DNA of 64,000 nt from Clostridiales bacterium (GTDB lineage: Bacteria > Bacillota > Clostridia > Christensenellales > JAISNN01): the NCBI GenBank assembly GCA_031289755.1, contig JAITOU010000030.1, positions 428 through 64,427 on the forward strand. The letters run 5' to 3'. Positions 17,750 to 18,936 of the stretch are shown piece by piece (position 1 is the stretch's first letter; every line of letters starts with the position of its first letter). The translations under genes and the position numbers were made by a program. The notes below the pieces were generated by a model. That model did not search any database, was not told the origin of the DNA, and was given only the letters and a program-made list of their open reading frames with translations.

Positions 17750-17778
17750 TTGACAAAATATTTACAATGATATATAAT
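17750..17778 (+). promoter_or_regulatory. Perfect consensus sigma-70-type promoter driving the retron ncRNA and RT
   Basis: TTGACA (17750-55), a 17-nt spacer, and TATAAT (17773-78). Confidence 0.7.
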
Positions 17779-17784
17779 AATATC

Positions 17785-17990
17785 ACGGTTTCCGGAACCG
17801 TCCCTTAAATGGGCGAGCCTTGTGTAAGCAAGGATTGTATAAGCGTTTAAAAGGAAAATATGGTTTACGGTATTCTACCGAAAACCATATTAGCGGAAAC
17901 CTATTTTTGAATTTTGCAATGACTGTTTCTAAGCGACAAAAATTGAAACGGTCATTTTTATAAAATACCGCCGAAAGGACTACGGGGGGA
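17785..17990 (+). ncRNA. Candidate retron msr-msd non-coding RNA
   Basis: Untranslated region between the promoter and the RT gene. Inverted pair GGTTTCCG (17787-94) and CGGAAACC (17894-901). Small hairpin CCTTG/CAAGG (17818-33). 33-nt hairpin ATATGGTTTACGGTA-TTC-TACCGAAAACCATAT (17858-90). An 11-bp hairpin plus T-run at 17919-59. Exact ends and the branching G are not determined. Confidence 0.55.
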
Positions 17991-17994
17991 TAAA

Positions 17995-18864
17995 ATGGAC
18001 AATATCGCCGCTCATTTACAAAAAGAAACGGGGCTGTCAATGATAAGGATAGAGAGTATTCTCGCCGACACAAAAAAAGAATACCGTACCTATTCTATCC
18101 CTAAGAGTACGGGCGGACGCCGCTCGGTATCCGAGCCGTCAGCCGACTTAAAGGCTCTCCAAAGGGCTGTGTTGCCGTACATCAAAAAACCCGAAGTCAA
18201 CAAAGCCGCGTCCGCATACGAAAGCGGTTCGTCGGTCAAAAAAAACGCCGAAAGACATATCAAAGGCAAGCATATCCTGCATATGGATATAAAGGATTTT
18301 TTTCCTTCGGTCGGGCGCGATATGTTTTTTGACACATATTCGGGGGAGCTTTCCGTAGGAGATGCGGAGCTTTTGTGGAAGATAGTTTCTTTGGACGGCG
18401 GCTTGCCGATAGGTGCGGCTACGTCGCCCTTTATAGCCAATCGAATCATGGCAAAGACGGACAAAAAACTCGGCAGGCTTTCGCTTTCCGTTTTTTTGAA
18501 ATATACGCGGTATGCCGACGATATGATTTTTTCTTCGCGCATAAGGCTCAGGCAGTCGCTTGCGGACAAAATCGGAGCGATTATCGAAAATGCCGGATTT
18601 GAAGTCAACGGCAAAAAGACATATTTTATGTCCGCACGGAAACAGGTCACGGGCATAATCATCACCGACAATAACGAGCTTTCGGTCGGCACGTCCTACA
18701 AAAAACAGCTCAAAAAGGATATCTACAACCTTTTGGTAAAAAATTCGGGAAAGCGCGGCGCGGTGCGCGGAAAATACGCCCATTTGCAATTTATCGAACC
18801 GGAATATGCCGATACAGTCAAGAAAAAATATATTAGATACGACAAAATCGGTTTTTTTAAATAA
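17995..18864 (+). CDS. Retron-type reverse transcriptase (289 aa)
   Basis: RT palm motifs MDIKDFFPS, LPIGAATSP and YADD (18511-22). Retron-characteristic NAERH (NAxxH, aa 84-88) and RKQVTG (VTG, aa 218-220). RBS GGGGGGA. No fused extra domain. Confidence 0.9.
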   Translation: MDNIAAHLQKETGLSMIRIESILADTKKEYRTYSIPKSTGGRRSVSEPSADLKALQRAVLPYIKKPEVNKAASAYESGSSVKKNAERHIKGKHILHMDIKDFFPSVGRDMFFDTYSGELSVGDAELLWKIVSLDGGLPIGAATSPFIANRIMAKTDKKLGRLSLSVFLKYTRYADDMIFSSRIRLRQSLADKIGAIIENAGFEVNGKKTYFMSARKQVTGIIITDNNELSVGTSYKKQLKKDIYNLLVKNSGKRGAVRGKYAHLQFIEPEYADTVKKKYIRYDKIGFFK

Positions 18865-18905
18865 AAATTGTTTTTAATTCAAGGATTATTCTAAAATAAA
18901 ATCAA

Positions 18906-18936
18906 AGCGGTTTCCCGTGCGGAAGCCGTTTTTTTG
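18906..18936 (+). terminator. Intrinsic terminator after the RT gene
   Basis: GCGGTTTCC-CGTGC-GGAAGCCGT hairpin followed by a T-run. Confidence 0.75.

Follow-up and report, generated by a model that had tools for sequence, protein, structure and literature searches.

A two-part retron without a linked effector gene in uncultured Clostridia, probably derived from type II-A retrons

A 64-kb stretch of contig JAITOU010000030.1 (assembly GCA_031289755.1) from a Clostridiales bacterium, hereafter called the window, carries at positions 17750-18936 a complete two-part retron, consisting of an msr-msd RNA gene and its reverse transcriptase (RT). Within approximately 1.2 kb, a promoter is followed by the msr-msd non-coding RNA (ncRNA) of about 115 nucleotides (nt), a hairpin with a T-run, the gene of an RT of 289 amino acids (aa) and a terminator. 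A first-pass annotation of the window had proposed a self-contained retron-like unit that would be either a solo retron or one with an unrecognised partner. This proposal is supported and can be refined: the best explanation overall, to which we assign a probability of roughly 0.72, is a complete two-part retron from a lineage of uncultured Clostridia that is monophyletic and effector-less and derives from type II-A retrons, which carry an NDT toxin. The parts of the unit are the following.

17750-17778, forward strand: sigma70-type promoter, TTGACA (17750-55), 17-nt spacer and TATAAT (17773-78), matching the consensus at 12 of 12 positions
17787-17794, forward strand: a1, the 5′ arm of the closing inverted repeat, GGTTTCCG, paired with 17894-17901 in the minimum free energy (MFE) and centroid folds
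17795, forward strand: candidate branching (priming) guanosine, the first unpaired G 3′ of a1, invariant in all 12 aligned ncRNAs
17802-17813, forward strand: msr hairpin P1, a CCC/GGG stem with a 6-nt loop, 97% of its alignment cells being paired
17818-17833, forward strand: msr hairpin P2, a 6-bp stem with an invariant GUAA (GNRA-type) tetraloop, within the invariant TGTGTAAGCA
17837-17847, forward strand: conserved single-stranded msr-msd linker GTATAAGCGTT, its GTA invariant and the remainder conserved in at least 75% of sequences
17857-17891, forward strand: msd template hairpin (10 + 5 bp), arms 17857-72 and 17876-91, a 94% complementary inverted repeat
17894-17901, forward strand: a2, the 3′ arm of the closing inverted repeat, CGGAAACC, paired with a1
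17904-17908, forward strand: T-run immediately 3′ of a2, read from the sequence
17919-17959, forward strand: hairpin (11-12 bp) and T-run between ncRNA and RT gene, present in the MFE and centroid folds
17984-17989, forward strand: ribosome-binding site GGGGGG, 5 nt 5′ of the ATG, read from the sequence
17995-18864, forward strand: retron RT of 289 aa that consists of fingers, palm and thumb and lacks an effector domain
18904-18936, forward strand: intrinsic terminator closing the unit, a 12-pair stem (18904-18932) followed by a T-run

Most of these parts had been named in the first-pass annotation, namely the perfect TTGACA-17-TATAAT promoter, the 8-nt inverted pair as an a1/a2 candidate, the short hairpin at 17818-33, a long near-perfect msd-like hairpin beside a2, the hairpin with T-run at 17919-59 as a possible attenuator, the 289-aa open reading frame (ORF) with RT palm motifs and the two retron signatures, and a terminator downstream of it. 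All of them held up when the stretch was scanned, folded and translated.

The translated RT contains the motifs MDIKDFFPS, LPIGAATSP and YADD (residues 173-176) together with the signatures NAxxH, here NAERH (84-88), and VTG (218-220), and it matches Pfam RVT_1 at 1e-20. Among the PADLOC models the top one is RT_II-A (2.5e-64, 215.6 bits, full length), followed by RT_III-A and RT_I-A. The RT_Ec107-like model ranks seventh with 170.9 bits, which places the protein outside the Ec107 branch. The NCBIfam model for retron St85 family RTs (NF038233) aligns residues 7-279 with profile positions 2-288 of 289 and yields 234.8 bits against a cut-off of 235; this shortfall of 0.2 bits probably explains that some homologs are named only 'reverse transcriptase family protein'. 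By comparison, models for Drt2, Drt3a, Drt4 and group II introns give 20-52 bits against cut-offs of 200-450. The closest PDB entries by sequence are retron RTs (E 1e-25 to 1e-29). An AlphaFold2 model of the RT built with 77 sequences (pLDDT 96.7, pTM 0.90) was matched by Foldseek over its full length to the RTs of Eco7/Ec78, type I-A, Ec83 and Ec86 with TM 0.84-0.88, whereas the DRT/UG, Abi, group II intron and DGR families gave weaker matches (TM 0.6-0.7). Model scores, structures and PDB matches therefore all group this RT with retron RTs rather than with DRT, Abi or group II intron RTs, as had been assumed. The full-length superposition on retron RTs leaves no room for an unassigned extra domain. 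In 21 aligned members of the clade described below, which share 44-62% identity with the RT of the window, YADD, NAxxH, VTG and many other positions are invariant, and none of these 21 RTs is frameshifted. One member (locus L168, 6001-6120, P0019) carries an N-terminal extension of 40 aa with a zinc-knuckle-like CxxCxxxxCxxC motif that is not present in the others.

The 216-nt leader upstream of the RT folds into an msr-msd architecture with -65.5 kcal/mol (z = -4.69), and 0 of 200 shuffled sequences were as stable; for the 115-nt ncRNA core alone z is -5.3. The a1/a2 stem encloses the two small msr hairpins, the linker and the msd hairpin. P2 has the form GCCUUG-GUAA-CAAGG. G17795 is a candidate for the priming residue by analogy with the canonical retron layout, and the a1-G-(A/U)AC junction in which it lies is also present in the ncRNAs of the sister group. 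The linker GTATAAGCGTT may be a termination or recognition region for the RT. The predicted multicopy single-stranded DNA (msDNA) is the complement of the msd hairpin, beginning at 17893 and about 40-55 nt long; as DNA, this complement folds with -11.9 kcal/mol (z = -6.85). No Rfam family matches the leader, even at E ≤ 1, and the ncRNA family appears to be new. With an RT that falls among the retron RTs and an adjacent ncRNA that has a1/a2, a G after a1, msr hairpins and an msd hairpin, the unit contains the RT and ncRNA features of the general retron definition; the 2′-5′ branched msDNA that completes this definition is a predicted product.

Thirteen loci of the clade were compared, namely the window and the loci labelled L081, L162, L164, L166, L167, L168, L170, L172, L001, L174, L175 and L176. 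The ncRNA element was found in the upstream regions of nine homologs, with promoter, a1, the invariant G, the CCC/GGG hairpin, the GUAA hairpin, the GTATAAGCGTT linker, a long hairpin of unrelated sequence, a2 and usually a T-run. Folded individually, these nine gave the same architecture (z from -4.2 to -6.1, 0 of 200 shuffles each), the long hairpin lying 1-4 nt 5′ of a2 in all of them; RNAalifold reported 18 pairs at this stage, 10 of which show compensatory changes. A covariance model (R1) built from nine ncRNA sequences recognised the element in three loci outside its training set (L174 with 91 bits, L176 with 85.9 and L175 with 71.5), so that 12 of the 13 examined clade loci are matched, each immediately upstream of the RT. 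The same model had zero matches in 99 loci of more distant retron RTs, including those of type II-A and III-A. In the alignment of 12 sequences, 97.7% of the cells are paired and 12 of the 18 pairs have changed on both sides; none of 500 shuffles equalled this pairing and slid registers are only 38-56% paired. Compensatory changes affect seven of the nine pairs of the a1/a2 helix and three of the six pairs of P2, of which 100% of the cells are paired, and the middle pair of P1 has changed from CG to UA in 5 of 12 sequences. The non-coding region is thus kept with covariation in the homologs, on which the first-pass annotation had made its proposal depend. Identity between loci amounts to 76% in the msr core versus 33%, close to random, in the msd region: the msd hairpin is hypervariable in sequence and constant in shape.

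A few loci show variations of this arrangement. In L001 the region upstream of the RT (4090-4350) is strongly structured (z = -4.4), with a long hairpin coming first and then a closed GCCGAACC/GGTTCGGC domain with two small hairpins; it may be a rearranged ncRNA. In L081 (640-990), a2 (GCGGAAGCC) has two alternative pairing partners, a1 and a CGGGCTTCCGC further downstream that is followed by a T-run, and a terminator/anti-terminator switch is possible. The 300-nt spacer before the RT of this locus also holds a 37-nt unit repeated 2.2 times (853-934). In L175 (2100-2123) the start codon of the RT lies merely 8 nt 3′ of a2, and as a2 contains GGAGG there, the a1/a2 stem would hide the ribosome-binding site of the RT. 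Two further candidates within the ncRNA were examined and rejected. Stop-to-stop frames on both strands look conserved as if a peptide were hidden in the RNA, yet their start codons are inconsistent and their ends differ (the ATG at 17809, for example, is absent in L162, L168 and L170), and such frames only mirror the conserved RNA. A perfect 11-nt complement between the apical part of the msd (17866-76) and the RT coding region (18078-88) is found in none of eight homologs and was judged to be due to chance.

The promoter at 17750-17778 is the sole perfect site in the promoter scan, which returned nine promoter-like sites where 3.4 were expected, and transcription is expected to start at a1 or just 5′ of it. 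All 12 clade loci that carry the ncRNA have a promoter with a match of 9-12 out of 12 positions, its -10 box ending 3-6 nt 5′ of the start of the ncRNA model; five of the 12 have the perfect consensus. The T-run at 17904-08 may mark the 3′ end of a discrete ncRNA transcript, and the hairpin at 17919-59, which a simple terminator scan missed because its loop has 15 nt, is a candidate attenuator that would restrict read-through into the RT gene. A T-run lies directly 3′ of a2 in 7 of the 12 loci, and a T-run or hairpin terminator precedes the RT in 10 of them, with hairpin terminators at the equivalent position in L166, L168, L172 and L081. No flanking direct repeats of a mobile element were found around the unit, and its GC content equals that of its surroundings. 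An empty site was looked for as well; the nearest homolog of the flanking permease is merely 47% identical, which means that no near relative is at hand for such a comparison. In L164 a tRNA-Thr(CGU) gene (5734-5809) ends about 15 nt 5′ of the retron promoter; a tRNA gene adjoins the unit in this one of the 12 homolog loci, and in none of the other 11 nor in the window.

The retron is not a one-off but part of a monophyletic effector-less lineage. A protein search returned the protein of the window itself and then approximately 26 clusters at 47-64% identity, all from metagenomes or metagenome-assembled genomes labelled Clostridiales, Clostridiaceae or Firmicutes, before identity dropped to 39% or less with St85-family retron RTs. 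Scans of genome and metagenome contigs with the RT as query yielded almost only distant retrons (28-42% identity), and the clade was not detected in IMG/VR viral contigs, neither by the ncRNA motif nor by protein patterns. In a neighbour-joining tree of 147 non-redundant sequences, all 24 full-length RTs of the clade fall into a single group, and in 100 bootstraps of a 60-sequence subset with 14 clade members the clade was monophyletic 98 times. Its sister was the NDT-linked pair of L082 and L088 in 88 and a wider NDT-linked group in 10 of the 100 bootstraps. The effector labels behind this were assigned first by PADLOC, with PRTase_III-A with or without a winged-helix (WH) protein in L002, L003, L005, L006 and L084 and NDT_II-A in L082 and L088, and were then extended by BLAST. 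The PADLOC model RT_II-A (PDLC02939) is the best one not only for the RT of the window, but also for six other clade members and the NDT-linked sisters. The RT thus groups with type II-A RTs, a placement that rests on effector-labelled relatives. Apart from this, L084 (6826-7362), L032 (6895-7470) and about 10 further type III-A loci share a conserved ORF of about 180-190 aa that immediately follows the RT gene. No PADLOC model matches this ORF, which could represent an additional, so far unlisted component of those PRTase and WH systems.

The sister loci give an idea of how the lineage might have arisen. They have the order promoter, ncRNA, NDT gene and RT, with the NDT gene starting about 15 nt 3′ of the T-run that follows a2 and, in L082, the RT starting 4 nt after the NDT stop codon. 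In the solo clade the RT starts 8-300 nt 3′ of a2. The ncRNAs of both groups have the a1-G-(A/U)AC junction and the T-run after a2 in common, but not their sequence. On sequence comparison, the most parsimonious interpretation is that the ancestor of the clade lost the NDT gene located between ncRNA and RT and that the two remaining parts have long been retained; both RT and ncRNA are under clear purifying selection.

In the window, Pfam places genes for an ABC ATPase and an ABC-2 permease upstream of the retron and a partial CN_hydrolase gene downstream, and also identifies a SpoU methylase and an esterase among the neighbours, so that the ABC-2 exporter pair and the degenerate CN-hydrolase-like gene are as first described. 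None of the neighbours in the window matched a PADLOC model of a retron effector, nor was there a PADLOC match for the tested ORFs of unknown function. Among the 13 loci the neighbours differ and are mostly housekeeping genes (enolase, TrkAH, NUDIX, a GGGtGRT protein, polysaccharide synthase, RlmL, phosphoglycerate mutase and sporulation genes). An all-versus-all BLASTP of every ORF within ±8-10 kb recovered just three kinds of shared sequence, the RT, short frames that shadow the ncRNA and, in four loci, generic ABC ATPases; no protein-coding gene except for the RT is common to the 13 loci. Searches for the known partners of related retrons were made in the 64-kb window and nine other clade loci. 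There, neither tblastn with PRTase, WH and NDT effectors nor maximum-sensitivity hidden Markov models (HMMs) from nine NDT and 57 PRTase sequences found anything; for NDT, no ORF of 40 aa or more scored better than E > 0.1 with either HMM or tblastn, so that the NDT effector of type II-A is missing from this set. A relic of an NDT or PRTase gene, looked for in the spacer and nearby in the same loci, was likewise not found. An effector adjoining or fused to the RT, as in tripartite defence retrons, is hence found neither at this locus nor across the 13 loci. This bears out the earlier statement that no known effector is fused or adjacent, which now extends to ±6-10 kb around the homologs. The suggested check for co-occurrence also gave a clear answer in the BLASTP of the contexts, as neither the ABC-2 pair nor the CN-hydrolase-like gene tracks the homologs; both are bystanders.

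Elsewhere the window has the gene content of an ordinary chromosome (SecDF, RecJ, Clp ATPase, LDH, TrkH and surface proteins) and not that of a defence island. Just upstream of the ABC-2 pair, on the forward strand, an 877-aa protein (13052-15685) has a thiol-activated (cholesterol-dependent) cytolysin domain (Pfam 8.7e-34, residues 57-403), a long C-terminal extension and a weak GLUG motif; it has no NCBIfam or PADLOC match. Three consecutive large ORFs of 552, 424 and 1268 aa (22301-28904, forward strand), which begin 3.4 kb downstream of the retron, have no Pfam or PADLOC match and occur in no other clade locus. A 1543-aa subtilase (Peptidase_S8; 4942-9573, forward strand), probably a large protease of the cell surface, has 11 Listeria-Bacteroides repeats together with Fn3-associated/Ig-like domains.

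From these parts a mechanism can be proposed. The parts with their order and conservation are observed, as is the lack of a linked partner, and the steps follow those of characterised retrons. Transcription would start at a1, and the T-run or hairpin after a2 would stop most transcripts, with a fraction reading through into the RT; the presence of T-run and hairpin before the RT suggests an excess of ncRNA, the RT being produced by read-through. The RT would then recognise the conserved msr hairpins, prime cDNA synthesis from the 2′-OH of G17795 and copy the msd hairpin from 17893 backwards. The product would be a branched stem-loop msDNA of the predicted length that remains bound to the RT. 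By analogy with other retrons, msDNA synthesis is very likely. The resulting RT-msDNA particle would represent what survives of a type II-A retron, its sensor or antitoxin half, retained for its own sake.

Several points weigh against this interpretation of the locus. The production of msDNA is itself deduced by analogy, and the hairpin and T-run ahead of the RT could mean that little RT is made, which would be awkward for a high-copy msDNA. The 12-sequence alignment was fitted to the covariance model and is therefore biased towards the structure, and L001, the most divergent clade member with an RT identity of 47%, has no match to the clade ncRNA model, its structured region being arranged differently. 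The tree is a neighbour-joining tree of about 220 columns that was made without the reference set of Mestre et al., and the relatives in it were labelled solely via BLAST to effectors identified in this analysis. Finally, the effector survey spans 64 kb here and ±6-10 kb per homolog, several homolog contigs (L081, L162) ending less than 1 kb upstream of the RT, and is as such compatible with an unlinked effector.

To our knowledge, every retron with understood biology is a three-part, toxin-antitoxin-like defence system, and all characterised defence retrons need their effector. Among the functions that come into question, we therefore lean, though tentatively, furthest towards an ordinary tripartite retron with an effector encoded elsewhere in the genome, where the RT-msDNA would restrain an unlinked protein and free it on phage infection. 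The clear purifying selection on RT and ncRNA is what would be expected if their loss were harmful, and the limited extent of the inspected DNA leaves room for such a gene. On the other hand, toxin-antitoxin partners are almost always genetically linked, 13 differing neighbourhoods have nothing in common, the window contains no NDT, PRTase or WH homolog, and the tested ORFs of unknown function have no PADLOC match. For the orphan branches of their phylogeny, Mestre et al. (2020; PMC7736814) left open both trans effectors and a different mechanism, while most orphan-retron genomes in their study had no homologs of known retron-associated proteins, which again speaks against a partner in trans. 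It is also possible, albeit rather doubtful, that the abundant RT-msDNA or the ncRNA itself is the working product, for example as a decoy that occupies phage nucleases, recombination proteins or ssDNA-binding proteins, or as a regulator of host physiology. A self-contained unit with its own terminator and very strong promoter would fit this, as would the persistence of the solo state through considerable RT divergence (to 44-62% identity), the housekeeping chromosomal setting and the absence from IMG/VR contigs; an msd hairpin that varies in sequence at constant shape could point to shape recognition or an arms race. Yet we know of no retron shown to work without an effector, the RT-msDNA of type II-A (Retron-Sen2, Eco1) has no activity known to us beyond toxin neutralisation, and the terminator between ncRNA and RT may restrict the RT and hence the copy number of msDNA.

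Since the sister group has an NDT toxin gene between ncRNA and RT, the particle might instead have been kept to neutralise NDT toxins that arrive on mobile elements. Orphan antitoxins with such an anti-addiction role are an established concept in toxin-antitoxin biology. This is nevertheless unlikely here, as RT-toxin pairing in retrons is specific, the ncRNA of the clade has diverged so far that its model matches none of the sister loci, and no NDT genes lie near any member searched. The missing effector and the St85 score just below its cut-off might also suggest a decaying, non-functional remnant of a type II-A retron. Given 21 RTs with all catalytic and signature residues and no frameshifts, compensatory substitutions in 12 of 18 ncRNA pairs, promoters kept in 12 of 12 loci and a structural model that is confident over the full length, this is very improbable. 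Even less credit is due to the flanking ABC-2 exporter pair or the CN-hydrolase-like gene as the partner of the retron in this genome. Both adjoin it, and ABC-type ATPases lie within 6 kb in 4 of the 13 loci; these ATPases differ, however, in architecture (ABC-F, ABC-FtsX fusions, ABC-2), strand and distance, and are only 27-30% identical. The matches of the ABC ATPase in the window to defence ATPase models are of a generic P-loop kind. The CN-hydrolase gene occurs in no other locus, and the retron has a promoter and terminator of its own.

Should the RT-msDNA of this two-part retron have its own function, or a partner that is not linked, the general view of retrons would change, and an effector-free particle would mean that retrons can work in a second way besides that of the toxin-antitoxin model. 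The role of effector-less (orphan) retrons has been a standing question since Mestre et al. (2020), and the lineage offers a clean test case for it: the unit is tiny, its ncRNA is delimited by covariation, its RT is intact and the ancestral ncRNA-NDT-RT arrangement is visible in the sister group, so that the same experiments are possible with and without the lost toxin. The compact 289-aa RT with its short, well-delimited msd hairpin is moreover a candidate for tools of retron-based DNA production.

Orphan retrons as such have been known since Mestre et al. (2020; PMC7736814), who noted that some branches of retron RTs, in clades 2 (Ec107/Eco5) and 11, have no associated protein. The present lineage appears to be new; no description of it was found in the literature searched, the searches being limited. 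Among the known systems, type II-A retrons (Retron-Sen2/St85, Eco1/Ec86, Eco3/Ec73), which consist of ncRNA, NDT-like toxin and RT, have the closest RTs according to PADLOC, the NCBIfam St85 model and the neighbour-joining sister. The ncRNA follows the same plan, with an a1/a2 stem, a G after a1 in an UAG(A/U)AC-like junction, two msr hairpins, a long msd hairpin and a T-run. Unlike type II-A, the defining NDT-like effector is absent here and in the other 12 clade loci, the ncRNA belongs to a distinct sequence family whose model matches no II-A or III-A loci, and the RT of the window is shorter (289 aa versus roughly 300-340). Type III-A retrons (PRTase-like and winged-helix effectors) have the next-nearest RTs with 35-42% identity, many of them in Firmicutes, and carry their effector or effectors upstream of ncRNA and RT. 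In contrast, no PRTase or WH gene is present here, and III-A RTs are not sister in the tree. With the orphan Retron-Eco5 (Ec107) and the clade 2 and 11 branches the lineage shares the composition of ncRNA and RT, the lack of an associated protein cluster, a location outside prophages and an undefined function. It differs from the Ec107 orphans in its model scores (RT_Ec107-like 170.9 versus RT_II-A 215.6 bits), in its position beside NDT-linked RTs instead of the PRTase-linked clade 2, and in its hosts, which are Clostridia and not Proteobacteria. Retron-Bth1 and Retron-Sda1 make RT-DNA without the usual effector of their RT type (PLoS Biol 2025; PMC12548924). These are single cases explained by disruption or replacement, one having a group II intron inserted and the other a HipA/DUF3037 system where the effector would be, whereas here a whole diversified lineage with intact, compact units is effector-less.

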